DNA of 64,000 nt. Source: Candidatus Rokubacteria bacterium GWA2_70_23. GTDB taxonomy: Bacteria > Methylomirabilota > Methylomirabilia > Rokubacteriales > CSP1-6. Below, piece after piece: positions 32,568-48,304 of this stretch. Position numbers and translations under genes: made by a program. The stretch's first letter is position 1, and each line of letters begins with the position of its first letter. The DNA is taken from NCBI GenBank assembly GCA_001788395.1, contig MGBT01000221.1, positions 16,896-80,895 of the forward strand, read 5' to 3'. A model generated the notes under the pieces. That model saw only the letters and a program-made list of their open reading frames with translations, ran no database searches and was not told the origin of the DNA.

Positions 32568-35480
32568 GTGACGTGTCCGCGGTGCCAGAGCGACAACCGC
32601 CCGGGAATCAAGTTCTGCGAGGAGTGCGGGGCCCGCCTGGCCCTCGCATGCCCCTCCTGCGGCGCCGAGGTCCTCCCGGACCGGAAGTTCTGCGGCTCTT
32701 GCGGCGGGGCCCTGGCCGAGAAGCCCGCCGACCGGGCCGCCTCGCCACGGGCCTACACCCCGAAGCACCTCGCCGAGAAGATCCTCGTCTCCAAGAGTGC
32801 GCTGGAGGGCGAGCGCAAGCAGGTCACCGTGCTCTTTGCCGATCTCAAGGGCTCCATGGAGCTGCTCGCCAACCGCGACCCGGAAGAAGCACGCCGGCTC
32901 CTGGACCCGGTCCTCGAGCGGATGATGGAGGCCGTCCACCGCTACGAGGGCACGGTGAACCAGGTCATGGGCGACGGGATCATGGCGCTCTTCGGGGCGC
33001 CGCTCGCCCACGAGGACCACGCGGTGCGCGCCTGCTATGCCGCGCTCCGGATGCAGGAGACGGTGGGGGGGTACGCCGAGGAGCTGCGACGGACCCAGGG
33101 GCTCGACGTCCAGATCCGCGTGGGCCTCAATTCCGGCGCGGTGGTGGTCCGCTCCATCGGCAACGACCTGCACATGGACTACACGGCCGTGGGGCAGACC
33201 ACGCACCTCGCCGCGCGCTTGGAGCAGCTCGCCCGTCCCGGGACGACGCTGATGACGGCCGACACCCTCCGGCTCGCCGAGGGCTATGTGGAGGTCAATC
33301 CGCTCGGGCCCGTGCCGGTGAAGGGCCTCGCCGATGCCGTGCAGGTCTATGAGATCGTGCGCGCGGGTCCGGTGCGCTCCCGGCTGCAGGCCGCCGCCGC
33401 CCGCGGACTCTCCCCCTTCGTGGGGCGCGATGGGGAGATCGACGTGCTGCGCCAGTCGCTGGAGCCAGTGCAGGCCGGCCACGGGCAGATCGAGACGCAG
33501 GTCCTCGCCGGGGAGCGCGGCGTCCACCGGCTGGCAAAGGCGCTCACGACCATCGAGGTGCCCGCCACGGTGCAGGCGGTGATCGCCTCGCGCATCGACC
33601 GGCTCGCCCCCGAGGAGAGGCGGCTCCTGCACGCCGCCTCCGTCATCGGCAAGGACGTGCCGCTGGTCCTCCTGCGCGCCGTGGCGGACCTGCCGGAGGA
33701 AGCCCTCAGCCAGAGCCTCATGCGGCTTCAGGCGGCCGAGTTCCTCTACGAGACGGGGCTGTACCCCGATCTCGGATACACCTTCACCCACGCGCTGACG
33801 CACGACGTGGCCTACGGCACGCTCCTCCAGGACCGCCGGCGCGGGCTCCACGCCCAGATCCTCCGGACCATCGAGCGCCTGCACCCCACCCGCCACGCCG
33901 AGCAGGCGGAGGTCCTCGCCGATCACGCCTTCCGCGGCGAGGCGTGGGACACGGCCGTGACGCACCTCCGCAAGGCCGGCGCCAAGGCGGCGGCGCGCTC
34001 CGCCAACGTGGAGGCCGTCGTGTATCTCGAGCGGGCGCTCACCGCGCTCGGGAAGCTGCCGGAGAGCCGCGAGACGACGGAACAGGGGATCGACGTGCGC
34101 CTGGAGCTGCGGCCCCCGCTGCTCCAGCTGGGCCATCTCCCGAAAGTGCTCGCGGTGTCGCAGCAGGCCGAGAACATGGCCAAGCTTATCGGCGACGAGG
34201 CGCGGCTGGCGCGCGTGTACAGCTACCTGATCAACTACCACTACCTCAAGGGCGAGCCGGAGATGGCCATCGCCTACGGCGAGCGCTGCCTGGCCATCGG
34301 CGAGGCCGGGGCCGACGCGGCGCTGCAGGCGATGGCGCGCGGCTATATGGGCTACAGCTATCACGCGCAGGGCCAGTACCGAGAGGCCGAGGCCGTCCTC
34401 GCCCGGAACGTCGAGAAGCTCGAGGCCTTGCGCGCGGCCGAGGGCGCCGGACCTCAGTCCGCGATCTCCTACGTGAGCTCGAGCGGCTGGTTCGCCTTCA
34501 CGCTGGCCGAGCTGGGGGACTTCGACCAGGCGCGCACCTATGCCGACATGGCCGAGCGGGCGGCGGAGGCCGAGCGCCACGCCTACGCCCAGGCGATCGC
34601 ATGGAGCCTCGGGGGGCTCGTGGCGCTACAGCGCGGGCATCTGGACCGGGCGCTGCATCTCCTGGAGAAGAGCCTCGAGACCTGCCGGAGCAAGCAGCTC
34701 ACGGTATGGCAGCCGATCCCCTCATCGCTGCTCGGGCTCACCCAGGTCCTGCTGGGCCGACACGACGAGGGGCTCTCCCTGCTGGAGGACGGCGTCGCGC
34801 GCACCGAGGCCCTCGGCGTGAAGGCGTACCTCGCGCTCTGGACGGCGCAGCTCGGCGAGGGGCTCGTCGCCGCCGGCCAGCCCTCCCGCGCGTTCGCGGC
34901 GGGCGAGCAAGCGCTCAGCCTCGCCATCGCCCACAAGGAGCGCGGCCACCAGGCCCGCGCGCTCCGGCTCCTGGGCGAGGTCGCCCTGCGTAGCGATCCG
35001 CCGGATCTGGCGAAGGCGGAGCAGGACTTCGCCCAGGCCCTCGCGCTGGCGGAGGAGCTCGGCATGCGCCCGCTCGTCGGTCGAATCCGCCTCGGGCTCG
35101 GCCAGCTCCACCTCGAGAGGGGGGACCGCGCCCAGGCCGAGGACCACCTGATCGCCGCGCTCGCCCTCCTCCGCGCGCTCGACATGCGCTTCTTCCTCGC
35201 GCAGGCGACAAGCGAGCTCAAGCGCCTCGGGCACATCTTCGTCGTGGCCCACCATAACCTCGGCCTCTACGAGTTCCTCAAGGAGAAGTTCGCCGGCGAT
35301 GGCGAGGTGACGGTGATCCTGGATCGGCGGCGCAGCGAGCGCCGGGGCGACGGGCAGCCTTCCGCCGCCGAGCGGGGCCGCGCCGAGCGCCGTTACCCCG
35401 GCTCGGGTGACGGCGCCCTGCGCCTGCGGGGCCTGGTCGTGCTCCCGGGCGAGGCGGGCTCACCGCCGGCGCGCTCCTAG
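32568..35480 (+). CDS. Multidomain signalling protein: double zinc-ribbon, class III adenylyl/guanylyl cyclase domain, degenerate STAND/ATPase remnant, TPR-like helical repeats
   Basis: CPRCQ...CEEC...CPSCG...CGSC zinc ribbons; VTVLFADLKGSMELL...VMGDGIMALFGAP cyclase core; FVGRDGEID... segment but no GxxxxGK[ST] anywhere in the 970 aa. Confidence 0.8.
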   Translation: MTCPRCQSDNRPGIKFCEECGARLALACPSCGAEVLPDRKFCGSCGGALAEKPADRAASPRAYTPKHLAEKILVSKSALEGERKQVTVLFADLKGSMELLANRDPEEARRLLDPVLERMMEAVHRYEGTVNQVMGDGIMALFGAPLAHEDHAVRACYAALRMQETVGGYAEELRRTQGLDVQIRVGLNSGAVVVRSIGNDLHMDYTAVGQTTHLAARLEQLARPGTTLMTADTLRLAEGYVEVNPLGPVPVKGLADAVQVYEIVRAGPVRSRLQAAAARGLSPFVGRDGEIDVLRQSLEPVQAGHGQIETQVLAGERGVHRLAKALTTIEVPATVQAVIASRIDRLAPEERRLLHAASVIGKDVPLVLLRAVADLPEEALSQSLMRLQAAEFLYETGLYPDLGYTFTHALTHDVAYGTLLQDRRRGLHAQILRTIERLHPTRHAEQAEVLADHAFRGEAWDTAVTHLRKAGAKAAARSANVEAVVYLERALTALGKLPESRETTEQGIDVRLELRPPLLQLGHLPKVLAVSQQAENMAKLIGDEARLARVYSYLINYHYLKGEPEMAIAYGERCLAIGEAGADAALQAMARGYMGYSYHAQGQYREAEAVLARNVEKLEALRAAEGAGPQSAISYVSSSGWFAFTLAELGDFDQARTYADMAERAAEAERHAYAQAIAWSLGGLVALQRGHLDRALHLLEKSLETCRSKQLTVWQPIPSSLLGLTQVLLGRHDEGLSLLEDGVARTEALGVKAYLALWTAQLGEGLVAAGQPSRAFAAGEQALSLAIAHKERGHQARALRLLGEVALRSDPPDLAKAEQDFAQALALAEELGMRPLVGRIRLGLGQLHLERGDRAQAEDHLIAALALLRALDMRFFLAQATSELKRLGHIFVVAHHNLGLYEFLKEKFAGDGEVTVILDRRRSERRGDGQPSAAERGRAERRYPGSGDGALRLRGLVVLPGEAGSPPARS

Positions 35481-35545
35481 CCGCCTTCCGCGCGCGGGCC
35501 CGGCGCGGACGCCGTGCCCCGGGCGCGTGATATCATCCCCCGCGT

Positions 35546-35621
35546 GAGCCGTTAGCTCAATCGGGAGAGCACCTGCCTTTTAAGCAGGGGGTCCCGGGTT
35601 CGATCCCCGGACGGCTCACCA
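35546..35621 (+). tRNA. tRNA-Lys (anticodon TTT)
   Basis: Cloverleaf folded by hand: 7-bp acceptor GAGCCGT/ACGGCTC, anticodon loop CTTTTAA, T-loop TTCGATC, encoded CCA. Confidence 0.85.
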
Positions 35622-35769
35622 TTGCTTCTCGCGGACTTCCGCGACACGCGCGTTACATCCCCCTACACCTGCAGCTCTCAGCCGCTCCTTCTGGTGCATG
35701 GACGACAGGATCGCTCAGGTTCCCGGCTGACGGAAGGGGCGACCCGGCAGTCGGGGCGACAGGACGGCG

Positions 35770-37704
35770 TCAGTCGGCGACGGTGGGCGGAGCGGCACCG
35801 ACCCGGGGCTCGGCGGCGACGGCGAGGGGGCGGGTGGGAGCCACCGGGCGCCGGCGCTCGAGGCGGTAGTCCCACGCGGCGAAGGCGACGAGCGCCACGC
35901 TGGTGGCGACGGACACGGCCAGGTTGGGCGAGATGGCGGCCAGCGCCGTGGCGGCCAGGAACGCGCGCTTGCCCCGGCCGAGCGGCGTGAACATGTGCCC
36001 GGCGATGGCCGCGCACAGGGACGCGATGCCGACGGCGGCGGAGGCGAAGGTGATGACCACCTCGGTCCACTCGCCGCGCATCAGCAGCGCTGGCTGGTAG
36101 ACGAACAGGAACGGCGCCAGGAAGCCGCCGATGGCGATGCGCGAGGCGTGGAGGCCGGTGATCATGGGCCTGGCGCCCGCGATCTGTGCTCCGGCGAAGG
36201 CGGTCACCGCCACCGGCGGCGTCACGTCGGCCAGGACCGCGTAGTAGAAGACGAACAGGTGCGCGGCCAGGATGTCGACGCCGAGCTTCTGCAGGGCGGC
36301 CCCGCCCACGGTGACGGCGAGGATGTAGGCCGGGGTGGTCGGGATACCGGTGCCGAGCACCGAGACGACGGCGAAGACCAGGAGGAGGGCGACGATCAGG
36401 TGGCCGCCCGACAGGTTGATGATCGCGCTGGAGAACGAGAGCGCGAAACCGGTGCGGCTTATGGCGGCGACGATGAGGCCAGACGCCGCGAGGACGGCGG
36501 CGATGATGACGCCCGAGCGCATGGACTCCTGCAGGGTGAAGTAGATGCGCCGGGGCGTCATCGGCTGCTCGCCCGCGAACCAGGAGACGACGATAGCCGT
36601 GAGGAAGCTGTAGAGGGCGGCCTTGGACGGCGAGTACCCCGCCTCCAGGAAGTAGACGATCGTCAGGAACGGCGAGAAGAGGAGCGCGCGCCGCAGCAGG
36701 CTGCCGAGCGGCGGGATGTCGGCGGTCATGGTGCCGATGGCCTGCCGGAGCGCCTCCCAGTGCACGGTGGCCATGATCGAGACGTAATAGAGGACGGCCG
36801 GCAGGGCGGCCGCCACGATGATCTTGGAGTACGGCACGCCGGTCAGCTCGGCCATGATGAAGGCGCCGGCGCCCATGATCGGCGGCATCAGCGGCCCCCC
36901 GCACGAGGCGGTGGCCTCGATGGCGCCCGCGATCTCCGGGCGGTAGCCGATCTTCTTCATCAGCGGGATGGTGAAGGTGCCCGTCGCGTAGCAGTCGGCC
37001 ACCGAGGAGCCGCTCACGGTGCCGTAGAGCGCCGAGGACAGCACGGCGACCTTGGCCGGCCCGCCGCGGTACCGGCCTGCCAGCGCGATGGAGATGTCCA
37101 TGAAGAACTGGCCGACGCCCGAGTGCAGCATGAAGGCGGCGAAGATGATGAAGATCATCAGCAGGTTGGACGAGATGCCGGTGAGCGTCCCCAGCACGCC
37201 CTCGTCGGCGTAGAGGAAGAACATCTCGATCAGCTTGGGGTAGCTGTAGGCGCGGGGCGAGTGCAGGAACCCCGGCAGCCAGGGCGCGGTGACGAGGTAG
37301 GCCATGAACACGAGGGTGGTGACGAAGAACCAGAACCCCACGGCGCGCCGCGCGGCCTCGAGCACCGCCAGCACGAGGAGGGTGCCAAGGATCACCTGTC
37401 CCGTGGCGACGGGGTGGACGCCTTCCCAGCGCTGGGTCAGCTCCTCGGCGTTCCGAATGACGTAGAGGGTGGGGGCGAGGGCGGCGACCACCCAGAGCAC
37501 GTCCACGGCGCTGACACGGTTGGCCGGCGACCGCTTGCCGGCGGGGAAGAGCAGGAAAGCGAGTGGCAGCAGGAACATGAGGTGGACCGCCCGCATCTCG
37601 CGCGGTTCCCAGGCCCCGGCGTACGCGGTCCAGATGTGGAACAGGGCGGCGGCGGCGGCCCAGCCGCCAACCGCCCCGCCCACCCGGCCCTGCAGACGGC
37701 GCAT
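35770..37704 (-). CDS. TAXI-type TRAP transporter fused permease subunit (DctQ-DctM fusion)
   Basis: 644-aa polytopic membrane protein beginning MRRLQGRVGG...; start 2 nt after the SBP stop; the upstream part of track ORF 35770..38643 is an artefactual in-frame extension. Confidence 0.8.
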   Translation of the reverse strand: MRRLQGRVGGAVGGWAAAAALFHIWTAYAGAWEPREMRAVHLMFLLPLAFLLFPAGKRSPANRVSAVDVLWVVAALAPTLYVIRNAEELTQRWEGVHPVATGQVILGTLLVLAVLEAARRAVGFWFFVTTLVFMAYLVTAPWLPGFLHSPRAYSYPKLIEMFFLYADEGVLGTLTGISSNLLMIFIIFAAFMLHSGVGQFFMDISIALAGRYRGGPAKVAVLSSALYGTVSGSSVADCYATGTFTIPLMKKIGYRPEIAGAIEATASCGGPLMPPIMGAGAFIMAELTGVPYSKIIVAAALPAVLYYVSIMATVHWEALRQAIGTMTADIPPLGSLLRRALLFSPFLTIVYFLEAGYSPSKAALYSFLTAIVVSWFAGEQPMTPRRIYFTLQESMRSGVIIAAVLAASGLIVAAISRTGFALSFSSAIINLSGGHLIVALLLVFAVVSVLGTGIPTTPAYILAVTVGGAALQKLGVDILAAHLFVFYYAVLADVTPPVAVTAFAGAQIAGARPMITGLHASRIAIGGFLAPFLFVYQPALLMRGEWTEVVITFASAAVGIASLCAAIAGHMFTPLGRGKRAFLAATALAAISPNLAVSVATSVALVAFAAWDYRLERRRPVAPTRPLAVAAEPRVGAAPPTVAD

Positions 37705-37706
37705 GA

Positions 37707-38687
37707 CTACTTCAGCAGGCCAGCTTCCTTGTAGGCGCGCTCGGCGCCTGGGTGCAGCGGCACGTTGCCGAGCCTGACGGCGTCCTTGGGGTCGAAGTCC
37801 TTGAAGGCCGGGTGCACCTTCCGCACGCCGTCGACGTTGGCCAGCAGCAGCTTCGTGAACTGGTAGATGGCGTCCGCCGGCGCGATCTTGGCGTTGGCCA
37901 CGATGGTGTTGGCCATGGCGATGGTCGGGATGTCGCGGTCGTTGTTGACGACGTCCTTGTAGGAGCCCTTCGGGATGACGCCCCGGCTCAGGCCGAACTG
38001 CTCGAGGTACTTGAGCAGGTCCTCGTCCATGGGCAGGATGCGCATCTTGCGGCCGAGCGAGGCTTCCTGCAGGGCGGCGGCGGGCACGGCCAGGTTCGGG
38101 ACCAGGATGTCGGCGTTGCGGTCGCGGAACTGGGTGACAAGGTCGGAGTAGGAGACGAAGATGACCTTGCCGCCGCGGCTGCGCACGTCGTTGTAGGACG
38201 TCTTGTAGAACTCGAAGATCTTCCGCATCACCCACTCGTCCGAGCCGCCCGGCGGCGTGGTGCCGATCTTGAGCGGCAGCTTCTTGTCGAACGCCTCGCG
38301 GATGGACTGTACGGGCAGGTCGTCGGCCACGGAGAACTGCACGTGGACGTAGCCGAGCCCGTTCATCACCAGCCGCATGTCGCCGTGCTTGTCCTTGTAC
38401 GGGTCCTGGCCGTTGTACGAGGCGGCGATGAAGGGCGGCAGCCCCCAGGCGATCTCGGTCTCCGCCTGCTGGATCTTGCTCATGTTCTGGATTCCGGCGC
38501 CGGGGATGACCTTGATGTTGAAGCTCGGGTCCTTGGACTTGAGGAGCTCCACGAACCCGCCGGCCTGCGCGTACCAGCCGCCGCCGACCTGCCCGGCGGT
38601 CCAGGTGAGCGTCTTCTGCTGTGCCGTCGCAGGCAGCGCCCACGCGGCCAGGGCAAACGCCAACAGCACTCCGATGGCTCGTCGCAT
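37707..38687 (-). CDS. TAXI-family TRAP transporter solute-binding protein
   Basis: MRRAIGVLLAFALAAWALPATAQQ signal peptide; 327 aa; RBS AAAGGAGG upstream; rest of track ORF 37707..39662 is an extension. Confidence 0.8.
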   Translation of the reverse strand: MRRAIGVLLAFALAAWALPATAQQKTLTWTAGQVGGGWYAQAGGFVELLKSKDPSFNIKVIPGAGIQNMSKIQQAETEIAWGLPPFIAASYNGQDPYKDKHGDMRLVMNGLGYVHVQFSVADDLPVQSIREAFDKKLPLKIGTTPPGGSDEWVMRKIFEFYKTSYNDVRSRGGKVIFVSYSDLVTQFRDRNADILVPNLAVPAAALQEASLGRKMRILPMDEDLLKYLEQFGLSRGVIPKGSYKDVVNNDRDIPTIAMANTIVANAKIAPADAIYQFTKLLLANVDGVRKVHPAFKDFDPKDAVRLGNVPLHPGAERAYKEAGLLK

Positions 38688-38698
38688 CACGTCCTCCT

Positions 38699-39835
38699 TT
38701 ATCGTCGCGTGCACTCCCTCAATGCGGCCTCGTCGACCTCGACGCCCAGGCCCGGGTCGTCGAGCGCCAGGATGGCGCCATCGGCGTACTGCACCGGGCG
38801 GCGGACCACGTCGCCCTTGAGCAGCAGCGGGCCGAACAGCTCGCAGCCCCACGTGACCGGCGCCGCCGCCAGCGCCACTTGCAGATAGGCGGCGGTGCCG
38901 AGCGAGGTCTCGATCATGCAGCCGACGTAGCAGCTCATGCCGGCCGCCTCGGCGATGCGGGCGATGGCCATGGTGCCCAGGATGCCGGCCGACTTGGTGA
39001 GCTTGAGGGCCAGGATCGACACGCCGCCGAGCCGCGCGATGGCGAGCGCCTCGTGGGGCGAGCCGCACGACTCGTCGGCCATCACCGGCACCGTCACCCG
39101 GCGCGCGATCTCCGCCATGCCGTCCAGGTCCCAGCGCGGCACCGGCTGCTCGACGAAGTCGAGATCGTAGGGCTCGAGCGCGCGGATGGCGGCGAGGGCG
39201 GTGGGCCGGTCCCAGCCCTGGTTGGCGTCCACGCGGAGCGAGACGCCGGGGCCGACCGCCTCGCGGATGCGCCGCACCCGCTCGACGTCGTGGGCGACCG
39301 GGTGCGCGGCCGTCTTGATCTTGAAGATGCGGTGGCCCAGTGCGACCTTCTGGCGCGCCTCCTCGATCTCGGCCTCGGGGCTCGTCACCGCGAGCGACCA
39401 CGACAGCGGCACGCGGTCGCGCACGCGGCCGCCCAGCAGGCGGTGGACGGGCACGCCGAGCGCCCGGCCGTTGAGGTCCCAGAGCGCCATCTCGACCGCC
39501 GCGCGGGCGAAGGGGTTGCCCTGCACCCGGCGCGCCATCTCCCGGCGCAGCGGCTCGATCTCCGCGGCGTCGCGGCCCACCAGCCACGGCGCCACGTAGC
39601 GCTCGATCACCGCCTGCACCGACTCCGCCGACTCCTCGCTCCAGGTGGGGCCGCCCAGGCACGCCGCCTCGCCCCAGCCCACGAGACCGCCGCGCGTCTC
39701 GATCCGCACGAAGGCGAAGTTGACGGCCTCCAGCGTGGTGAACGACATCTTGTGCGGCCGCTTGACCGGGATGTCGGCCAGCACCACGCGCACCTCGGCG
39801 ATGGTCAGGTCACTCGGCATCCGGCCCCTCGTCAT
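38699..39835 (-). CDS. Enolase-superfamily enzyme, MR/MLE subgroup (dipeptide epimerase / HpbD-like racemase-epimerase)
   Basis: KIKT (KxK), DLDFVEQP, MADES metal ligands and KLTKSAG second Lys; start may be the internal Met at 39820. Confidence 0.8.
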   Translation of the reverse strand: MTRGRMPSDLTIAEVRVVLADIPVKRPHKMSFTTLEAVNFAFVRIETRGGLVGWGEAACLGGPTWSEESAESVQAVIERYVAPWLVGRDAAEIEPLRREMARRVQGNPFARAAVEMALWDLNGRALGVPVHRLLGGRVRDRVPLSWSLAVTSPEAEIEEARQKVALGHRIFKIKTAAHPVAHDVERVRRIREAVGPGVSLRVDANQGWDRPTALAAIRALEPYDLDFVEQPVPRWDLDGMAEIARRVTVPVMADESCGSPHEALAIARLGGVSILALKLTKSAGILGTMAIARIAEAAGMSCYVGCMIETSLGTAAYLQVALAAAPVTWGCELFGPLLLKGDVVRRPVQYADGAILALDDPGLGVEVDEAALRECTRR

Positions 39836-40973
39836 GCGCCTTCGCCGCGCCGCGGGCGAAGCGCCCGGGGTCGAAGAGCGAGAGGTCGGCGGCGGGCTTG
39901 CCCTCCACCAGCCAGGCGGCCACGTGGCGCCCGGTGGCCGGCGAGTGCTGGAAGCCGTGGCCGCCGAAGCCGACGGCGAGAAAGAAGCCCTCGACCTCCG
40001 GCGCCCAGCCGATGATCGCGTGGTCGTCCGGCGTGAGCGGCCGCAGGCCTGCCCAGCCGCCGGCGATCTTCGCCTGCTCCAGCAGCGGGACGCGGTGGAC
40101 GGCCTTCGTCACCGCCTCCTCCACCATCGACCAGTCCATCGGCACCTCGACGTCCTCGCCGATGTCCTGCACGTCGCCGGGGCTGAGCAGGACCTGCTCC
40201 ATCTCCTTGCGGAAGTAGAAGCCACTGGCGCGGTCCGTGGTGAGCGGCACCGGCCCCGGGATCTCCGGGAACGGCTCGGTGTAGAAGATGTGCCGCCGCC
40301 GCGGGTGCACCGGCACCTCGGCCCCGGCCATCCGGCCCACGCGTGCCGCGGCCGGGCCGGCCGCGTTGACGACGATCGGCGCCGCGATGGCGCCGTTCGT
40401 GGTCGTCACGCCGGTCACCCGGCCCCCCGCGGTTGCGATGCCGGTGACCGTCACTCCCTCCACGATGCGCGCGCCCAGCCCGCGCGCGCGCCGGGCGAAG
40501 GCGTTGGTGACCTCGGCCGGGCCGGCCAGGCCGTCGTCGGGCCCCCACACGGCCGCCACGAGGTCGTCCACGCGGAGGGCGGGCACCAGCCGCTGCGCCT
40601 CGTCCGGCGCGATGACGCGGACGTCGACGCCGCAGCGCCGCTGCAGCGCCATGCGCTCCTCGAAGCCCTTGAGGTCGGCCGGGTCGGAGACGAGGAAGAG
40701 GTAGCCGATCTTCTTGTAGCCGGGATCGACGCCGAACTCCTCCTCGAACCGCTCGAACACCGCGATGGACTCCAGCGAGAAGCGCACCTCAGCCTCGGTG
40801 GGGAACTGGGCGCGGATGCCGCCGGCCGCCTTGCTGGTGGTGCCGCTGCCGACGGCCTCGCGCTCGATCACGACGACGTCACGCAGACCGCGACCGGCCA
40901 GATGGTAGGCGATGGAGCAGCCGACCACGCCGCCGCCGATGATCACCACGCTGGCGGTGCGGGGGACAGACAT
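39810..40973 (-). CDS. FAD-dependent oxidoreductase (DAO family; D-amino-acid / sarcosine oxidase-like)
   Basis: SVVIIGGGVVGCSIAYHLAGRG dinucleotide-binding N-terminus; start chosen at MSVPRTA (40973). Confidence 0.8.
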   Translation of the reverse strand: MSVPRTASVVIIGGGVVGCSIAYHLAGRGLRDVVVIEREAVGSGTTSKAAGGIRAQFPTEAEVRFSLESIAVFERFEEEFGVDPGYKKIGYLFLVSDPADLKGFEERMALQRRCGVDVRVIAPDEAQRLVPALRVDDLVAAVWGPDDGLAGPAEVTNAFARRARGLGARIVEGVTVTGIATAGGRVTGVTTTNGAIAAPIVVNAAGPAAARVGRMAGAEVPVHPRRRHIFYTEPFPEIPGPVPLTTDRASGFYFRKEMEQVLLSPGDVQDIGEDVEVPMDWSMVEEAVTKAVHRVPLLEQAKIAGGWAGLRPLTPDDHAIIGWAPEVEGFFLAVGFGGHGFQHSPATGRHVAAWLVEGKPAADLSLFDPGRFARGAAKAHDEGPDAE

Positions 40974-41178
40974 GACGGCAGGATGGTACACCACCTGCGC
41001 CCCCGGGCAACGGCCTCTTCCCGAACGGGTGCACGACACCAGATTGAGGGGTGTGCGAACACTCTTCGCTCCCTCGAGTCTCAGCCAAGCCCCGCCCGGG
41101 TTGCGCTAAGATGCGTCCTGGCGCAATGTTCCGGTCATGCTCAGCCCGAGACGCGGCTGAGGGCCACAGGAGGCTGAC

Positions 41179-43122
41179 ATGGTGGAAGCGACGGTTCGTC
41201 CGCGGCTCTTCTCGCCCGGAAGGATGGGGCCGATGCAGCTCCGCAACCGGGTGGTAATGGCGCCCATGGTGGTGCAGCTCGGCTCCGAGAGCGGGGCGGT
41301 CACCCAGCGCACCGTCGACTACTACGTGCGCCGGGCCGCGGGCGGCGCGGGGCTCGTCATCGTGGAGGCCAGCTACATCGCGCCGGAGGCCAAGGCCTAC
41401 GCCTGCCAGCTCGGGATAGACCGCGACGGCCTTGTCCCCGGCCACTTCGAGCTGGTCGAGGCGATCCACCGCCACGGCGCGAAGGTTGCCATCCAGATCC
41501 ATCACGGCGGCGGCCGCGCCGACCCGGCGCTGACGGGCGGCGTTCTCGTGGCCCCGTCGCCTGTCGCTCAGGACGCCCATGCCGTCGTCCCCCGCGAGGC
41601 GACCCCGCAGGAGATCGAGACGTTGGCGGAAAGCTACGCCCGCGCCGCCGGGCGGGCGCAGCGCGCGGGCTACGATGCCGTGGAAATCCACGGCGCCCAC
41701 GGCTACCTGATTCACGAGTTCCTTTCGCCCGCCTCCAACCGCCGCTCCGATGCCTACGGGGGGAGCCCGGAGAACCGCCGCCGCTTCGCCGGGCTGGTGA
41801 TCCGGCGGGTCCGCGAGGCGGTGGGCGCGCGCTTTCCGGTCCTCTTCCGGATGAGCGCCGAGGGCGGCTACGGGATCGAGACGGCCGTGGAGATCGCGCA
41901 GGCCCTGGAGGCGTGGGGTGTGGACGCCATCCATGTCTCGGTCGGCGGAACTGCCCCGATTACCCTGGTCCCGCCGGACACCAGCCCCATGGCCCGTCCC
42001 GAGGGCTGGCTCACCGGCTACGCCGCGACCCTCAAGGAGCGCGTCTCCGTGCCGATCATCGTCGTGGGGGAGATCCGTCACCCTGTCTTCGCGGAAGAGG
42101 TTCTGGCTCAGGGCAAGGCCGACTTCATCGCCCTCGGGCGGCAGCTCCTGGCCGACCCGGACTGGCCCGCCAAGGCCGAGGCCGGCAGGGACGACGAGAT
42201 TCGCCTCTGCATCTCCTGCGACTATTGCCGGCTGGCCCTGCTGTTGACACGGCCGATCCGATGCCTGGTGAACCCCGAGGTGGGCCGAGAGCGGGAGTTC
42301 TCCGCCTTCGGGCCAGCGGCCGCGCCGAAGCGCGTCATCGTCGTGGGCGGAGGCCCCGCCGGCCTGGAGGCGGCGCGGGCCGCGGCCGTGCGGGGCCACC
42401 ACGTCACGCTGTCCGAGCGCAGCGCCGAGCTCGGCGGTCAGCTCCATCTCGCCGCGCTCCCTCCCCACAAGGAGAAGATCGAGTGGCTCAGGCGATGCCT
42501 CGTCACCCAGGCGCGGAAGGCCGGGGCGGAGCTGTCTCCCTCGACGATCTTCCGGCCCGAAGGGCTGGCCGAGGGGGAGGCCGACGCCGTGGTGGTGGCA
42601 ACCGGCGCCCGCCCGGTCGAGGAGCAGGTGCCAGGCGCCCGTGCGGGCCAAGTGGTCTCGGCCTGGGAGGTGCTGGAGGGCCGTCCGCCCGCAAGGGACC
42701 TGGCGGTGGTCGTGCTGGGCGGAAGGCAGCTGGGCTGCGAGACGGCGGAGTTCCTGGCCGAGCGCGGCAACCGGGTCACCCTGGTCTCCCGCTCGCGGAC
42801 AGCGGAGCTGGCCGGCGATGTGGTGGCGAGCTACCGGGGGCCCCTCCTGGCCCGGTTGCGAAGGCTGGGGGTTGCGCTCCGCACGCGCTGCGATGTCCGC
42901 GAGGTGAGGGATGGCCAGGCCATCGTCGTGGAGGCGGGCGGCCGCGAAGAGGCCGTGGGCGCCGACCTTGTGATCCTCGCCCGCGGGTCAATGCCCGAGC
43001 CCACCTGGCTGGAGCTGCTCCGGACGAAGGTGCCTGAGGTCTACGTGGTGGGGGACTGCGTCGAGCCGCGCATGATCGCCGACGCGCTCTACGAAGGCGC
43101 CTGGGCCGGGAGCCAGATCTAG
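41179..43122 (+). CDS. Old Yellow Enzyme-type flavin oxidoreductase fused to FAD/NAD(P)-binding domain with 4Fe-4S motif (2,4-dienoyl-CoA reductase / TMADH / N-methylproline demethylase family)
   Basis: LRNRVVMAPM OYE TIM-barrel N-terminus; CISCDYC-x11-C cluster motif; C-terminal GGGPAGLEAA Rossmann; RBS GGAGG. Confidence 0.8.
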   Translation: MVEATVRPRLFSPGRMGPMQLRNRVVMAPMVVQLGSESGAVTQRTVDYYVRRAAGGAGLVIVEASYIAPEAKAYACQLGIDRDGLVPGHFELVEAIHRHGAKVAIQIHHGGGRADPALTGGVLVAPSPVAQDAHAVVPREATPQEIETLAESYARAAGRAQRAGYDAVEIHGAHGYLIHEFLSPASNRRSDAYGGSPENRRRFAGLVIRRVREAVGARFPVLFRMSAEGGYGIETAVEIAQALEAWGVDAIHVSVGGTAPITLVPPDTSPMARPEGWLTGYAATLKERVSVPIIVVGEIRHPVFAEEVLAQGKADFIALGRQLLADPDWPAKAEAGRDDEIRLCISCDYCRLALLLTRPIRCLVNPEVGREREFSAFGPAAAPKRVIVVGGGPAGLEAARAAAVRGHHVTLSERSAELGGQLHLAALPPHKEKIEWLRRCLVTQARKAGAELSPSTIFRPEGLAEGEADAVVVATGARPVEEQVPGARAGQVVSAWEVLEGRPPARDLAVVVLGGRQLGCETAEFLAERGNRVTLVSRSRTAELAGDVVASYRGPLLARLRRLGVALRTRCDVREVRDGQAIVVEAGGREEAVGADLVILARGSMPEPTWLELLRTKVPEVYVVGDCVEPRMIADALYEGAWAGSQI

Positions 43123-43217
43123 CGTCACTCCTTGGGGCTCGGAACGGGGTCTCCGCTGGGGTCCTGGGATCGCGTTATACTCGCCCGGAACCCCGGTCGC
43201 TGACTCACGCAGGTGTG

Positions 43218-43585
43218 AGCTCATCTTCCGCGGCTTCGCGGTGGCCGGCTGCGAGCCGGACGAGATGGGGATCGGGCCCGTGTTCGCGGTGCCGAAGCTC
43301 CTCAAGCGGCACGGGCTCACGGTGGACGATATCGACGTGTGGGAGCTGAACGAGGCCTTCGCCGTGCAGGTGGTCTACTGCCGCGACCGGCTCGGTCTCG
43401 ATCCCGACACGCTCAACGTCAACGGGGGCTCGGTCTCCATCGGCCATCCCTTCGGCATGACGGGCTCGCGGATGGTGGGCACCATCGCCAACGAGATGCT
43501 CCGGCGCCGGGCGCGCTACGGCGTGGTGACGATGTGCATCGGGGGCGGCCAGGGCGCAGCCGGCCTCTTCGAGGCCTGCCTGTAG
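43218..43585 (+). pseudogene. Remnant: C-terminal about 120 codons of acetyl-CoA C-acyltransferase (thiolase)
   Basis: ...MGIGPV...DIDVWELNEAFAVQ...NVNGGSVSIGHPFGMTGSRM...MCIGGGQGAAGLFE matches thiolase C-terminal domain; no N-terminal domain upstream. Confidence 0.6.
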
Positions 43586-43669
43586 GGACTCCTGGCGCTG
43601 GGGGTGGTTGTCACGGGTGCCCCCGTTTGGTATGATGCGCGTGCTTTCGCCCGCAGGGATGAGCGTTTC

Positions 43670-43748
43670 GACCCCGTCGTCTAGTCTGGCCAAGGACGCG
43701 ACCCTTTCAAGGTCGAGATCGCGGGTTCGAATCCCGCCGGGGTCACCA
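43670..43748 (+). tRNA. tRNA-Glu (anticodon TTC)
   Basis: Acceptor GACCCCG/CGGGGTC, anticodon stem CGACC/GGTCG with loop CTTTCAA, T-loop TTCGAAT, encoded CCA. Confidence 0.8.
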
Positions 43749-43772
43749 CTCTCCTCGTGGTTGGGGGGTTGC

Positions 43773-43994
43773 ATGGAAAGGCCGGGCATCCGTGAGCTGG
43801 TCGGGCGGGCGATGCTCGACAAGGAGTTCCTGGCCGAGCTCGTGCGCGATCCGTCGGCCGTGCTTGCCGGCTACGGCCTCGAGGCCGAGGAGCGTGCGGC
43901 GGTGATGAAGGCCGTGGCCCGCACCGGCAAGACGTCGGACGCGGAGCGGACTCGGGCACTGCAGACCATCATGATGAAGCGCTGGGCGACGTAG
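43773..43994 (+). CDS. Small protein (73 aa) resembling Nif11/NHLP-type leader domain
   Basis: ...AMLDKEFLAELVRDPSAVLAGYGLEAEERAAV... fits the DxxFxxxLxxDPxAxL..G leader motif of NHLP/Nif11 precursor families; no Cys-rich core or GG site. Confidence 0.45.
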   Translation: MERPGIRELVGRAMLDKEFLAELVRDPSAVLAGYGLEAEERAAVMKAVARTGKTSDAERTRALQTIMMKRWAT

Positions 43995-44034
43995 CGGCGT
44001 GCGCTGCCTTCCTTCGATCAGCGGACATCGCTGA

Positions 44035-44541
44035 GTGGCCAAGCCGGCCGACCTCCCCTTCCTGCGGCAGGTGCTCCTGTTCAGGGACATCGCCGACCCG
44101 GAGCTGCTGGCCCTGTGGCCCTGGCTCCAGGAGCGGCGGCTGCGCGCGGGGGAGGTGCTCTTCCGGGAAGGCGATACCGGCAGCGAGATGTTCCTGATCC
44201 GGTCCGGGAGCGTGGTGATCTCCAAGCGCGTCACGGGGCGCGTCGAGCAGGTGCTGGCGCGGTTCGGGCCGGCCGACTTCTTCGGGGAGATGAGCCTCTT
44301 CGACCGGCTGCCGCGCTCGGCCACCGTGCAGGCCGACACCGACACCGTGCTCCTCGGCCTCACCGGCGACAACCTCGACCGGCTCATCGAGAGCAGCCCC
44401 CGCGCGGCCACCGCGTTCTTCTACCAGCTCGTCCAGGTGTTCATCAAGCGGCTCCGCGACTCGGGCGATCTCGTGGCGGAGGTGACGCGCTGGGGGCTCG
44501 AGGCCACGGGGCTCGACATCGAGCACACCTCGCCCGGATGA
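44035..44541 (+). CDS. Cyclic-nucleotide-binding domain protein (CRP/FNR effector domain only, no HTH)
   Basis: ...GEVLFREGDTGSEMFLIRSGSVVIS...FFGEMSLFDRLPRSATVQA... cNMP-binding beta-roll; 168 aa. Confidence 0.75.
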   Translation: MAKPADLPFLRQVLLFRDIADPELLALWPWLQERRLRAGEVLFREGDTGSEMFLIRSGSVVISKRVTGRVEQVLARFGPADFFGEMSLFDRLPRSATVQADTDTVLLGLTGDNLDRLIESSPRAATAFFYQLVQVFIKRLRDSGDLVAEVTRWGLEATGLDIEHTSPG

Positions 44542-44545
44542 TGCG

Positions 44546-45769
44546 GTGACCGCCCGCAAGTCCAAGATCGAGCTCCTCGTCCGGGACGAGGCCGGTGACA
44601 GGTTCCGGATCCAGAAGGTTGAGAGCGGGCTCGCCTACCTCCAGCATCGTCCCCAGCGGATTCCCCTCGAGCAGTGCGAGCTCGCCGAGATGCGTTCCGG
44701 GTTGCGCAAGGCCACGTCCTACGTGCTGAAGAACCGCAAGACCGAGCACTACATCCAGCTGACCGAGCCGGAGAAGTTCCTGTGGGAGCAGATGGACGGG
44801 CAGGCCTCGCTCCAGGAGATGGCAACCGCCTACGTGCTGCGCTATGGCGCCTTCGACTTCGACATCATTCCGAGCCTCATCTCCAAGCTCCGCCGCGCCG
44901 AGCTCCTGACGATGCGCCCGGCGTCACGGCTGAGGGAGGTGCTGTCCCGCCACCGGCGCAACCCGGCGGTGCGGGCGGCCGAGGCCGCCCTCAAGGCCCT
45001 CGAGAAGCTCACCGTGACAAGCCGCCGGGCGCACACCCTCTTCGAGCGCGTGTACCGCTACGGCGCCTTCCTCCTCTTCACGCCGTTCATGGGGGCGGGG
45101 CTCGTCCTCATCACGGGGCTCGGCGTCCGCGGGGCCGTCCTGCTCTGGGCGGACCGGAGCGAGGTGACCGCGGCGCTGGCGGCCCATCCCATCGCGGCGA
45201 TCCTGCTCGTCAAGCTCTTCTTCTGGCTCACGGTGATCAGCCACCAGATGGTGCACGCGCTGGCCCTCGTCCATTACGGGCGGCGAGTCCGCGAGTTCGG
45301 CTTCACCATGCTCCACGGTTTTATCCCGACCTTCTACGCCGACGTGACCGACATCTTCATGGGCACGCGCCGCGCCCGGCTCGTGGCTGCGCTGGCGGGG
45401 CCGCTGGTGCACCTGTTCCTCGGGGCCTTCTACCTCTGGATCGCAAGCCTGCTGGGGCCCGGGCTGCTCAAGGGCTTCCTCGCCGCCTCGGCCATCCTGC
45501 AGCTGCAGTCGCTGTTCGTGAGCCTCTACCCGTTCTGCTTCCTCGAGATGGACGGCTATCACGTCCTGGTGGATCTGCTGGGCATGCCCACCCTCAACCA
45601 CGAGTCCGTGAGTTTCGTCCGCCACTCGCTCTGGCGGCGGCTCGTGAAGGGGGTCGGGCTCAACCGCCAGGAAGTCGTCTACGTGTCCTACGTGTTCCTC
45701 TCGGCCGCCTCCATCGTGGCCTTCGTCGGGCTCAACGTGTGGGTGCTGTTCCGCGCGGGCGCCTCCTGA
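44546..45769 (+). CDS. Membrane protein: N-terminal PqqD-like (RRE-like) cytoplasmic domain fused to M50/site-2-protease-like polytopic domain with HQxxH instead of HExxH
   Basis: HYIQLTEPEKFLWEQMDGQASLQEMATAYV resembles PqqD fold; TM segment SHQMVHALALVHYG and later FLEMDGYHVL resemble M50 HExxH and LDG motifs with E to Q. Confidence 0.45.
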   Translation: MTARKSKIELLVRDEAGDRFRIQKVESGLAYLQHRPQRIPLEQCELAEMRSGLRKATSYVLKNRKTEHYIQLTEPEKFLWEQMDGQASLQEMATAYVLRYGAFDFDIIPSLISKLRRAELLTMRPASRLREVLSRHRRNPAVRAAEAALKALEKLTVTSRRAHTLFERVYRYGAFLLFTPFMGAGLVLITGLGVRGAVLLWADRSEVTAALAAHPIAAILLVKLFFWLTVISHQMVHALALVHYGRRVREFGFTMLHGFIPTFYADVTDIFMGTRRARLVAALAGPLVHLFLGAFYLWIASLLGPGLLKGFLAASAILQLQSLFVSLYPFCFLEMDGYHVLVDLLGMPTLNHESVSFVRHSLWRRLVKGVGLNRQEVVYVSYVFLSAASIVAFVGLNVWVLFRAGAS

Positions 45770-45786
45770 AGCCCGCGGTCGGGGTG

Positions 45787-46428
45787 ATGGCGAAGGTCCC
45801 GGGGCTCGAGCCCGTGAAGTCGCGGCTCCATCAGGCGCTCACCCAGGAGATGGCCACGGTCCTCTACCGCTGCTTCCTCCTGGACCGGCTCGAAGCGCTT
45901 GCGACGCTGCCCGGGATCGATGCGCTGGCGGCCTTCACGCCGCCCACCGGCCGGGCGCGCATGGTGGCGCTCGCCCCGGAGGGTTTCCGGCTCGTGGCCC
46001 AGCAGGGGAGAGATCTGGGAGAGCGGCTGTCGAATCTCCTGGCGGGCCTCCTCGCCAGCGGGCACCCCGGCGCCATGGCCATCGACAGCGATAGCCCGAC
46101 ACTGCCGATGGCGCATGTGCGCGAGGCGGCGGAGGTCCTGGCCCGGGGCGCGGCCGATCTGGTGCTGGGCCCGTCAGACGACGGCGGCTACTACCTCGTC
46201 GGGCTCCGCCGGGGAGCACCTGGCCTCTTCGAGGGAATCCCCTGGAGCACGGATCGTGTCCTGCCCCTGACGATCGAGAAGGCCGGCCGGCTCGGGCTCA
46301 GGACGCACCTCCTGCCCGAGTGGTTCGACGTGGACACGGAGGCGGACCTGCGGCGCCTCCACGCCGCGCTCCTCGCGGGCGAGGGTCCGCGGCGCACGCG
46401 GCGTTGCCTCGAGGCGATCTACGGGTGA
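45787..46428 (+). CDS. DUF2064 family transferase (GT-A-like, rSAM/selenodomain-associated transferase family)
   Basis: MAKVPGLEPVKSRLHQALTQEMATVLYRCFLLDRLEAL matches DUF2064 N-terminus; in frame within track ORF 44674. Confidence 0.6.
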   Translation: MAKVPGLEPVKSRLHQALTQEMATVLYRCFLLDRLEALATLPGIDALAAFTPPTGRARMVALAPEGFRLVAQQGRDLGERLSNLLAGLLASGHPGAMAIDSDSPTLPMAHVREAAEVLARGAADLVLGPSDDGGYYLVGLRRGAPGLFEGIPWSTDRVLPLTIEKAGRLGLRTHLLPEWFDVDTEADLRRLHAALLAGEGPRRTRRCLEAIYG

Positions 46429-46460
46429 GTGCGCGGTCCATCCCGAGCGTTGATGGTACA

Positions 46461-46865
46461 ATGCGACCCGTGCGAGCCCTCCTGGTCGTGTGCGGCCTCC
46501 TGCTCGGCGCCTGCGCGTCCACGGGCGGTTTGCCGCGCCAGCCCTTCACCGACGTTCCCGTCGGCGCGGAGTGGCAGCCGTACTCGCGCGACTGGGTCGT
46601 GATCGAGACGCCCGGTGTCACGGCCGCCAAGCTGATCTACTTCACCAAGACCGGCGTGGATGCGACCCTCGCCGAGGTGCGCCGGCTCATGCCCCAGAGC
46701 GGGTGGAAAGAGAGGGCCACCGAGCGCTTCGTGAACCCCGAGGGCTTCAAGGGCCAGTGGGCGGAATACGCGAAGGGCGCGGATGTCTGCCGCGTGACCG
46801 TCATCGAGGGGGCGAGCGCCACCCACGTGGACCTGACTCTCGCCCGGCGCCCGGCCACGCGCTGA
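46461..46865 (+). CDS. Small lipoprotein
   Basis: MRPVRALLVVCGLLLGAC lipobox; 134 aa. Confidence 0.5.
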   Translation: MRPVRALLVVCGLLLGACASTGGLPRQPFTDVPVGAEWQPYSRDWVVIETPGVTAAKLIYFTKTGVDATLAEVRRLMPQSGWKERATERFVNPEGFKGQWAEYAKGADVCRVTVIEGASATHVDLTLARRPATR

Positions 46866-48304
46866 TGGCGGGCGCCGACCTGGCCTGGCGCTCGGCCATG
46901 GAGCTGGCCGGGCTCATCCGCGACAAGCAGGCCTCCCCGGTCGAGGTGACGGACGCCGTCCTGGCGCGGATCGCCGCGCTGAACCCCCGGATCAACGCCT
47001 TCTGCACCGTCGCGGAGGAAGAGGCGCGGGACGCGGCCCTGGCGGCGGAGGTGGCCGTGCTCTCCGGGGAGCCGCTGCCGCCGCTCCACGGCGTGCCGGT
47101 CTCGGTGAAGGACCTGATCTTCACCCGGCGCATCCGGACGACGGGCGGCTCCCGCCTGTTCGCCGACCACGATCCCGAGGAGGACGCCGTCAGCGTCGAG
47201 CGGCTCAGGGCGGCGGGCGCCGTCATCGTCGGCAAGACCACGACGCCGGAGTTCGGCCACAAGGGCATGACCGACAGTCCCCTCTGCGGCGTCACGCGCA
47301 ATCCCTGGAACCTGGAGATGACGCCGGGCGGGTCGAGCGGCGGCGCCGCCGCGGCCGTGGCGGCCGGGCTGGCCCCGCTGGCTCTGGGGACGGATGGCGG
47401 CGGCTCCATCCGCCTCCCCGCCTCGTTCTGCGGGGTCTACGGGCTCAAGCCCTCATTCGGGCGCGTGCCCTCCGGGCCCGGCTTCCCCGGGTGGGAGACC
47501 TTCTCCCACACCGGGCCCATGACGAGGACGGTCCGCGACGCCGCGCTCATGCTCGACGCCCTCGCCGGTCCCGACGACCGAGACCGCCATTCGCTGCCGG
47601 CCGATCCGGGCGGCTCCTTCCTCGCGGCGTGTGATGCGGGCATCGCCGGCCTGAGCGTCGCCTGGTCCCCCGATCTCGGCCGCGCGCGGGTGGACCCCGA
47701 GGTGGCGGAGCTGTGCGAGCGGGCCGCCGTGCAGCTCGAGTCGCTCGGCTGCCACGTGGAAGTGGTCATGCCCACCTGGGATGATCCCGAGGAGATCTTC
47801 CGCGTGATGGCGGCGGCCGAGACGTTCGCCGCCTGGGGCGACCGGCTGGCCGATGCTTCGCGGGACCTCGACCGGACGCTCGTTGCGCTGCTGCGCTTCG
47901 GCCGTACCGTCACGGCGGAGCAGTACCTCACGGCCGCGCGCCGGCGGCGCGAGCTCTGGGGCGAGGCGCAGCGCTTCCTGGCGCGCTTCGATCTCCTCAT
48001 CACGCCGACGATGCCGGTGCCGGCCTTCGCGGCGGCAGGGCTCCCGCCCAAGCAGATCAACGGCCGGGAGATCTCGCCGCTGGGCTGGCTGCCCTTCACG
48101 TTCCCCTTCAATCTCACCGGGCAGCCCGCGGCCACGGTCCCCGCGGGCTTCACGGCGGCGGGGCTGCCGGTGGGGCTCCAGATCGTCGGACGGCGGCACG
48201 CGGACCGCACCGTGCTCGCCGCCTCCGCCGCGTTCGAGGCCGCCGCGCCGTGGAGCCATCACCGGCCGGGTCCCGATCTCCGCCCGCCTCGCGGTTGCGG
48301 CTGA
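46865..48304 (+). CDS. Amidase (amidase-signature family), paralog of 3742..5157
   Basis: GGSSGGAAAAVAAGLAPLALGTDGGGSIRLPAS; C-terminus LPFTFPFNLTG...LQIVGRR shared with first amidase. Confidence 0.85.
   Translation: MAGADLAWRSAMELAGLIRDKQASPVEVTDAVLARIAALNPRINAFCTVAEEEARDAALAAEVAVLSGEPLPPLHGVPVSVKDLIFTRRIRTTGGSRLFADHDPEEDAVSVERLRAAGAVIVGKTTTPEFGHKGMTDSPLCGVTRNPWNLEMTPGGSSGGAAAAVAAGLAPLALGTDGGGSIRLPASFCGVYGLKPSFGRVPSGPGFPGWETFSHTGPMTRTVRDAALMLDALAGPDDRDRHSLPADPGGSFLAACDAGIAGLSVAWSPDLGRARVDPEVAELCERAAVQLESLGCHVEVVMPTWDDPEEIFRVMAAAETFAAWGDRLADASRDLDRTLVALLRFGRTVTAEQYLTAARRRRELWGEAQRFLARFDLLITPTMPVPAFAAAGLPPKQINGREISPLGWLPFTFPFNLTGQPAATVPAGFTAAGLPVGLQIVGRRHADRTVLAASAAFEAAAPWSHHRPGPDLRPPRGCG

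Follow-up and report, generated by a model that had tools for sequence, protein, structure and literature searches.

The window analysed here is a stretch of 64,000 nucleotides from Candidatus Rokubacteria bacterium GWA2_70_23 (assembly GCA_001788395.1, contig MGBT01000221.1), with a G+C content of about 71%. It contains a minus-strand operon of four genes, which encode a flavin adenine dinucleotide (FAD) enzyme of the DAO family, an enolase-superfamily enzyme of the MR/MLE type, a TAXI-family solute-binding protein and a fused TRAP permease (Table 1). Automatic pipelines label the second of these a muconate cycloisomerase (MLE), and this label feeds claims made from soil metagenomes about the degradation of aromatic compounds. 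We propose a different role, in which the operon is one copy of a module found across the phylum in Rokubacteria (Methylomirabilota) for the uptake, the stereoinversion or dehydration, and the FAD-dependent oxidation of an amino or imino acid. The probability of this reading is put at about 0.45.

Families were assigned by Pfam and NCBIfam profile searches, using the curated NCBIfam cutoffs, and solved relatives were sought in the PDB. These searches confirmed the families given in the original prediction for the four operon genes and for the divergent flavoprotein gene beside them. All five genes are present at the positions and in the order described there, and the coupled junctions it reported were also borne out. 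The TAA of the MR/MLE gene is followed by AAGGAGG, which puts a ribosome-binding site at the enolase stop, and then by the ATG of the binding-protein gene. The binding protein and the permease are two separate genes, with the 2 nt TC between the TAG of the first and the ATG of the second. For the MR/MLE gene the predicted extent of 39835–38699 is correct at the stop, but the second ATG, at 39820, is the likelier start and is the one used in public gene calls. With this start the overlap with the end of the DAO gene is 11 nt, not 26. In related loci the DAO and MR/MLE genes overlap or lie less than 20 nt apart in about 60 of 68 cases, and the TAXI and permease genes are separated by 2–21 nt in 31 of 35.

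How widely are these genes kept together? Scanning a single genome for each GTDB species gave 79 loci, and genes were called in 88 sources, clustered, and the recurrent clusters annotated, with flanks of at most 10 kb a side (individual loci are cited by L number). All but one of the 79 loci hold an MR/MLE relative that is 77–99% identical to the window enzyme; the exception, L087, comes from a Comamonadaceae metagenome-assembled genome (MAG) and is 45% identical. The carriers of the 77–99% relatives are nearly all Rokubacteria or Methylomirabilota; of the few with other labels, most come from contigs of less than 7 kb. The clade is isolated, with 77–99% identity inside it and the next full-length relatives at 56% or below, and it makes up one full-length 50% cluster in 1.84 billion representatives. 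More than 3,000 metagenome proteins match the enzyme at E <= 1e-30 (3,222 among 8,000 candidates scored), the best 120 of them being 82–95% identical. The DAO gene is directly 5' of the MR/MLE gene in 68 of 87 Rokubacteria loci. For CatA, CatC, maleylacetate reductase and a PcaD-like hydrolase there was no tblastn match in the 1.31 Mb around 88 MR/MLE genes.

Copies of 80–99% identity are also filed under MAGs of Gemmatimonadales, Actinobacteria, Binatia, Dormiibacterota and Acidoferrum (L010, L030, L045, L062, L063 and L066). The contigs of L010, L030, L045, L062 and L063 are 2–7 kb long; that of L066 is 65 kb, so that mis-binning is less clear there. These oddly filed copies look like binning errors rather than cases of horizontal transfer.

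The binding protein passes the cutoff of TIGR02122 (136.8 bits against 84.35) and the permease that of TIGR02123 (582 against 320.65). These family models are shared with known TAXI-TRAP proteins such as Thermus GluBP (1us4), the Vibrio cholerae glutamate TAXI protein and the Proteus TAXI protein 8s4j. The score against any solved TAXI protein is only about 80 bits, and unlike the known systems this one trades places with a LivK-type ABC system between sister lineages. Orthologues of the binding protein in 28 other loci are 76–98% identical, and the protein is encoded residue for residue, in the same gene order, on contig MGBX01000199.1 of GCA_001788425.1. On the 3' side of the MR/MLE gene there is an orthologous TAXI-TRAP pair in about 35 loci and a LivK-type ABC system in about 35. 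The two importer types are interspersed on the MR/MLE tree, down to the sister pairs L026/L028, L015/L001 and L027/L079. One importer has therefore repeatedly taken the place of the other beside the same enzyme pair, and this implies that both carry one substrate, of a sort that suits amino-acid-type binding proteins. In the PDB the ABC binding protein is closest to the Atu2422-type 3ip5, titled 'ABC transporter, substrate binding protein (Amino acid)'. In Pfam and NCBIfam neither binding protein, the TAXI type or the LivK type, matched a betaine-binding (OpuAC-type) family.

The DAO-family enzyme matches PF01266 with 274 bits over profile positions 2–353 of 353, and its N-terminal GxGxxG motif reads IIGGGVVG. 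Among solved structures its nearest relative by far is 1y56_B (236 bits), the beta subunit of the Pyrococcus L-proline dehydrogenase complex (PMC1949818). The window enzyme differs from that archaeal complex in standing alone, without genes for alpha, gamma and delta subunits. Its scores are under the curated cutoffs for SoxB (TIGR01373, 150.7 against 529), ThiO (134.8 against 250.8), DadA (111.7 against 383) and the remaining named families. Members of the family that includes 1y56_B, SoxB and HcnC-type enzymes oxidise secondary amines, and its nearest solved kin are found here. On annotated replicons the closest homologues are haloarchaeal, at 38–45% identity. In two genera these adjoin divergent genes of the ornithine cyclodeaminase (OCD) family, and others adjoin either Liv-type ABC genes or genes for a PutA-type proline dehydrogenase and an aldehyde dehydrogenase. 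Homologues on bacterial plasmids were also considered as a source of context and neither helped, the one in Ensifer being a DMGDH-type fusion and the one in Deinococcus belonging to a different cluster.

Outside the Rokubacteria none of the best-scoring relatives of the MR/MLE enzyme is linked to cat genes. A 48% relative in Desulfobacula sp. has the gene for a fused TRAP permease on one side and those for a TAXI binding protein and then a GntR regulator on the other. Desulfobacula is an anaerobic genus, so that O2-dependent cleavage of catechol does not fit. In L096/L097 a gene for a 52% relative follows that of an SSF symporter, with sigma54 regulators, and the operon divergent from it encodes a heteromeric DAO complex (Fer2_4, Pyr_redox_2, Fer4, SO_alpha_A3 and DAO). 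Nitrososphaerota-type archaea have relatives of 43–49% identity in the order APC amino-acid permease, MLE, MLE, and one archaeal relative adjoins an OCD/mu-crystallin gene and two PALP genes. The relatives of the DAO enzyme and those of the MR/MLE enzyme thus lead independently to imino- and amino-acid neighbourhoods. The second MLE-subgroup gene with which the archaeal relatives are paired stands in tandem or divergently (L090, 7001–9298; L091, 5692–8110), and its product shares 34–36% identity with the window enzyme, the copies of the two archaea being 54% identical to each other.

By sequence, the MR/MLE enzyme is itself a member of the muconate cycloisomerase family. It passes TIGR02534 (muconate/chloromuconate cycloisomerase) with 388.6 bits against a cutoff of 334.95, and in the PDB every one of its best matches, at about 280 bits, is an MLE or chloro-MLE. 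The CatB of a Roseomonas benABCD-catA-catB-catC operon shares 43.8% identity with it, and the MLE of a Rhodococcus cluster of catA, MLE and maleylacetate reductase (macA) genes 43.5%. L087 was set aside as a clean catB reference in favour of these two clusters, since its adjoining hydrolase matches PcaD weakly and below the cutoff (192 against 256 bits). The original prediction had pointed to epimerases of the HpbD type. The enzyme is neither of this nor of the cis-3-hydroxyproline dehydratase type. It groups at the sequence level with the muconate cycloisomerases, an outcome which that prediction had named as telling against it; the HpbD structures 4h2h, 4e8g and 2pmq reach only 120–125 bits, and NF043002 gives 126 bits against a cutoff of 500. 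The models for L-Ala-D/L-Glu epimerase (A_G_epim, 133.5 against 500), DgcA (146 against 400) and o-succinylbenzoate synthase (OSBS; menC, 134.8 against 200.65) also score far below their cutoffs.

With CatB, ClcB and TfdD (1muc, 3ct2, 3i4k) the enzyme shares the fold and the catalytic set, namely K172-I-K174 (the KxK motif), D203, E229, D254 and K278, and these columns are invariant in its alignment with relatives. Cat-linked MLEs are 43–46% identical to it and have in common with it the RPHK 20s loop, A271 and K276, and the ELFGPLLL motif. The positions of MLE specificity mutants read I54L, Y59W, A271, K276 and F329, plus E327. This pocket pattern is kept equally in archaeal and bacterial relatives that are not cat-linked, and does not discriminate. 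What differs from the CatB type is the setting, since the gene is never beside catA, catC, pcaD or maleylacetate reductase and is coupled to DAO and to amino-acid-type transporters. A second difference, seen in a column-by-column comparison, is a set of about 12 positions close to the metal ligands and within the capping loops, at which the Rokubacteria agree with the relatives without cat linkage and not with cat-linked MLEs. Among them are G207 (near D203), F227 (near E229), Y317, the loop residues F32, T64 and E67, and V304, C306 and T310, which surround the conserved Glu 309 (378-aa numbering). Such a pattern would be expected of a distinct specificity family, although it is no proof of one.

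The substrate class, the type of reaction and the order of steps that we propose are as follows. The TAXI-TRAP system would import a small carboxylate-bearing amine, as the orthologous LivK-type ABC systems would do in about half of the related genomes. The MLE-family enzyme would use its Mg2+/Lys-x-Lys/Lys machinery to abstract the alpha proton next to the carboxylate, and then either invert the stereocentre, as a racemase or 2-epimerase, or eliminate a beta-substituent, as a dehydratase. The FAD enzyme of the DAO family would oxidise the C–N bond of the resulting or companion isomer to an imine or 2-oxo acid, which would pass into central metabolism. The favoured class of substrate would be secondary amines of the proline type, such as D-proline, an isomer of hydroxyproline or a comparable imino acid, and another amino acid is possible. 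An epimerase acting with a DAO-type dehydrogenase and with uptake of an N-substituted or D-amino acid had been suggested in the original prediction; this generic logic is still the best reading and agrees with the contexts of the relatives, and the betaine version of it does not.

There are precedents for such a pathway. In dadA-dadX (for L-alanine) and hypE-hypO (for hydroxyproline) a DAO-family dehydrogenase is paired with a racemase or epimerase that supplies the right stereoisomer, and the pair is linked to uptake. DadX is dependent on pyridoxal phosphate and HypE belongs to the proline-racemase superfamily, whereas in the present operon this place is taken by a member of the enolase superfamily that belongs to the muconate cycloisomerases. 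LhpJ and HpbD are imino-acid enzymes of the MLE subgroup that occur among DAO-type dehydrogenases, pyrroline-2-carboxylate (Pyr2C) reductases and transporters, with a pathway logic like the one proposed here. The window enzyme is related to both only at the level of the subgroup and is an orthologue of neither. LhpJ, from an L-hydroxyproline cluster, is described as epimerising and dehydrating free cis-3-hydroxy-L-proline (PMC5144071), and so provides a precedent for an MLE-subgroup enzyme that acts on a free imino acid. Literature searches turned up nothing specific on a system of MLE plus DAO, on Rokubacteria with muconate, or on the ligands of TAXI proteins.

Several observations weigh against an amino- or imino-acid module. 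The MR/MLE enzyme is above the TIGR02534 cutoff, its 43.5–43.8% identity to catB-type genes is within the range found among accepted MLEs, and it retains the specificity-mutant residues and the RPHK 20s loop. Within the enolase superfamily, no racemase that acts on free primary alpha-amino acids is known. The operon has no gene for a Pyr2C reductase, a deaminase or an aldehyde dehydrogenase, and no homologue of the OCD family, which is the one Pyr2C-reductase family tested, was found near any Rokubacteria locus. The contexts of some relatives at 52–55% identity are uninformative, being a glycosyltransferase/dTDP-sugar cluster in L093 and an isolated gene in L094/L095. About 12 loci are without the DAO gene, and in 6 of these an Asp/Glu/hydantoin-racemase-like gene (NCBIfam PRK07475) is directly 5' of the MR/MLE gene. 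The putative substrate class, finally, is assigned only through guilt by association.

Is the enzyme then what its label says? A genuine muconate cycloisomerase, perhaps for a substituted muconate, would lactonise imported cis,cis-muconate, or a similar unsaturated dicarboxylate, that other microbes in the soil had set free, with the beta-ketoadipate enzymes encoded elsewhere and the DAO enzyme unrelated or accessory. TRAP systems classically carry carboxylates, the gene upstream in about 15 loci (Asp/Glu racemase-like) belongs to the maleate-isomerase superfamily, and the passing of TIGR02534, the exclusively MLE and chloro-MLE matches in the PDB (about 280 bits), the identity of about 44% to a ben-cat catB and the retained pocket positions, ELFGPLLL and RPHK motifs are all as this explanation would have them. 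We consider it unlikely, because no gene for catA, catC, a PcaD-like hydrolase or maleylacetate reductase is within about 10 kb of any of the 88 MR/MLE genes, while an amine-oxidising DAO enzyme is translationally coupled in 68 of 87 loci and the alternate importer is an amino-acid-type LivK system. The closest relatives, in Desulfobacula and in archaea, are by amino-acid permeases or an OCD-family gene, the pocket positions are equally conserved in non-cat relatives, and the clade-specific substitutions adjoin the metal ligands. Salvage of D-amino acids from peptidoglycan, in which an N-acyl-amino-acid or dipeptide epimerase (of the NSAR, DgcA or AEE kind) would supply the DAO enzyme with released D- or L-amino acids, is improbable. 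In its favour, no function other than MLE is commoner in the subgroup, the profile scores are moderate (146 bits for DgcA, 133 for L-Ala-D/L-Glu epimerase and 135 for OSBS), and the archaeal relatives are in tandem with a second MLE-subgroup gene and have an amidohydrolase nearby; yet all three of these models are far below their cutoffs and positions 271 and 329 are MLE-like, not dipeptide-epimerase-like. Neither within the operon nor conserved near it is there a gene for an acyltransferase, an acylase or a peptidase, and the TAXI and LivK families of binding protein are not known to be of the oligopeptide type.

The catabolism of proline betaine or hydroxyproline betaine, as envisaged in the original prediction, would combine an HpbD-type epimerase, a DAO-type D-(hydroxy)proline dehydrogenase and the divergent flavoprotein as an N-methylproline demethylase like TMADH or StcD. 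The co-occurrence of MR/MLE, DAO and OYE-FAD genes resembles the published Hpb loci, and the DAO enzyme is indeed proline-dehydrogenase-like. The phylogenetic placement of the MR/MLE enzyme largely refutes the scheme, with 120–125 bits for the HpbD structures against about 280 for MLEs. The flavoprotein is nearer to naphthoyl-CoA reductase and FadH than to TMADH, is paired with a thiolase and is not conserved in its adjacency; no Rieske demethylase was seen in any locus examined and the binding proteins had no OpuAC-type match. We therefore regard betaine catabolism as very improbable. Just as little credence is given to a lactam or lactone substrate (pyroglutamate-like, or another cyclic amide or ester) processed together with hydantoinase/oxoprolinase genes. 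It is true that the chemistry of MLEs is the formation and opening of lactones, and that Hydantoinase_B/oxoprolinase genes stand divergently upstream in about 12 Rokubacteria loci and by a haloarchaeal DAO homologue. But the link is loose: most loci, the window among them, lack these genes, and where present they are divergent and often have toxin-antitoxin genes between them and the operon. No HyuA partner was seen, and DAO enzymes are not known to oxidise amide nitrogens.

Two kinds of gene recur near the module. Genes of the PRK07475 type (about 305–320 bits against a cutoff of 231) are directly 5' of the DAO or the MR/MLE gene in L034, L043, L047, L053, L060, L064, L066, L068, L070, L085 and L088; this racemase-like neighbour had no PDB relative at E <= 1e-3. 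Hydantoinase_B/oxoprolinase genes are divergent on the 5' side of DAO in L001, L003, L012, L016, L022, L040, L081 and others, and also stand beside the haloarchaeal DAO homologue of L105 (a Haloterrigena plasmid). The best model for the recurrent Hydantoinase_B genes is caprolactamase beta, below its cutoff, and the association may be a coincidence or a hint of a lactam. Two further candidates were rejected. A GcvT-domain gene near some loci, considered as a sign of N-demethylation, is on the opposite strand behind EndoIII and NUDIX genes, and its size of ~326 aa fits a YgfZ-type protein. An AidB-like acyl-CoA dehydrogenase, considered as a replacement for DAO, is merely the next upstream gene, as L044 has both.

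The operon appears to carry its own start signal. No Shine-Dalgarno sequence precedes the DAO gene, and a -10-like box 9 nt before its ATG suggests a leaderless transcript. Of 54 loci whose upstream genes differ, 17 (the window and 16 others) have a GGT(G)TA[AC][AC]AT box 5' of the DAO gene, against 0.19 expected from shuffled sequences, so that the box travels with the module. This suggests that the box is the probable promoter of a leaderless operon mRNA. No riboswitch or leader RNA was found in an Rfam scan of 35000–44200 at E <= 1, which gave two tRNAs and noise only. A consensus scan for terminators and promoters yielded nothing of use in DNA of 71% G+C.

Table 1. Features of the operon and of the DNA next to it, in window coordinates
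Feature	Position	Strand	Remarks
tRNA-Lys(UUU)	35546..35621	+	flanks the block
Fused TRAP (DctQ-DctM-type) permease	37704..35770	-	644 aa; TIGR02123
TAXI-family TRAP solute-binding protein	38687..37707	-	326 aa; signal-peptide-like N-terminus; TIGR02122, Pfam NMT1_3
MR/MLE enolase-superfamily enzyme	39835 or likelier 39820..38699	-	378 or 373 aa; MR_MLE_N + MR_MLE_C
DAO-family FAD dehydrogenase/oxidase	40973..39810	-	387 aa; first gene of the operon; Pfam DAO E = 2.6e-81
-10-like box GGTGTACCAT	40983..40992	-	9 nt before the DAO ATG, without Shine-Dalgarno
OYE/4Fe-4S/FAD flavoprotein, divergent	41179..43122	+	647 aa; Oxidored_FMN + Pyr_redox_2
Thiolase C-terminal remnant	43241..43585	+	last ~110 codons; Thiolase_C only
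tRNA-Glu(UUC)	43670..43748	+	flanks the block

The divergent flavoprotein had been counted as part of the locus and assigned to the TMADH/StcD/FadH family. The architecture stood up, and the protein is FadH-like; it shares with FadH and 2-naphthoyl-CoA reductase an OYE domain, a 4Fe-4S cysteine motif (CxxCxxC...C, as CISCDYCRLALLLTRPIRC) and an FAD/NAD(P) domain. The more specific comparison with a TMADH-like N-methylproline demethylase did not, since its PDB scores are 306 bits for 6qkg (2-naphthoyl-CoA reductase) and 278 for 1ps9 (FadH) against 184 for TMADH. It is under every NCBIfam equivalog cutoff (495 against 793 for mycofactocin OYE_2). Nor does it keep company with the operon, which it adjoins in only 7 near-identical sources of the 88; the next closest operons, at 89–91% identity in the MR/MLE enzyme, have other upstream genes. 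In L009 (4131–5318) an intact thiolase of 395 aa is 3' of the FadH-like gene. Compared with the L009 contig, which is 97.5–97.9% identical, the window thiolase has lost its start and about 270 codons through a deletion of ~845 bp. The divergent gene is judged to be FadH/2-naphthoyl-CoA-reductase-like, to form with the thiolase a separate unit of the acyl-CoA type, and to lie outside the module.

The two tRNA genes bracket an 8-kb block made up of the operon, the FadH-like gene and the thiolase remnant, and in other Rokubacteria the module is found in many different genomic neighbourhoods. Beyond the block, at 43773–48304 on the plus strand, is a possible cluster of the ribosomally synthesised and post-translationally modified peptide (RiPP) type. 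It holds a 73-aa Frankia_peptide (PF14407) open reading frame (34.7 bits against the Pfam gathering cutoff of 48), a membrane metalloprotease (HExxH) that matches the model of a daptide maturation protease below its threshold (97 against 300 bits), a cNMP-binding protein, DUF2064, a small open reading frame and an amidase. Convergent to the operon, at 32568–35480 on the plus strand, is a gene for a protein of 970 aa with a double zinc ribbon, an adenylate/guanylate cyclase domain and TPR/MalT-like repeats. Together with the cNMP-binding protein (44035–44541), it places genes for cyclic-nucleotide signalling on either side of the operon.

The families of all the parts are already known, the logic of the pathway has precedents, and this is not a categorically new kind of system. 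What may be new is that a specificity family has branched off from the muconate cycloisomerases, that it is paired with a flavoenzyme which stands alone and resembles proline dehydrogenase, and that TAXI importers have repeatedly been exchanged for ABC ones. The module is also well suited as a target in the search for new functions. Together with those bacterial and archaeal relatives that are linked to transporters, the Rokubacteria clade could constitute a new isofunctional family within the muconate cycloisomerase lineage, switched from the lactonisation of muconate to the stereoinversion or dehydration of a free amino or imino acid and acting with a stand-alone flavoenzyme like proline dehydrogenase; we hold this a little short of even odds. 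If it is true, at least several thousand 'muconate cycloisomerase' proteins of soil and groundwater metagenomes, and the potential for aromatic degradation derived from them, are mis-assigned, and a widespread annotation is probably in need of correction.

Rokubacteria are abundant and uncultured bacteria of soils and aquifers. The presence of the enzyme pair in nearly every sampled genome, at 77–99% identity, probably marks a core nutritional trait of these organisms. If the family handles an amino or imino acid, that widespread annotation would be corrected and the MLE subgroup would gain a reaction specificity. The repeated exchange of TAXI-TRAP and ABC importers for the same substrate would then be a natural experiment, useful for the discovery of ligands in the TAXI family, which is poorly characterised.

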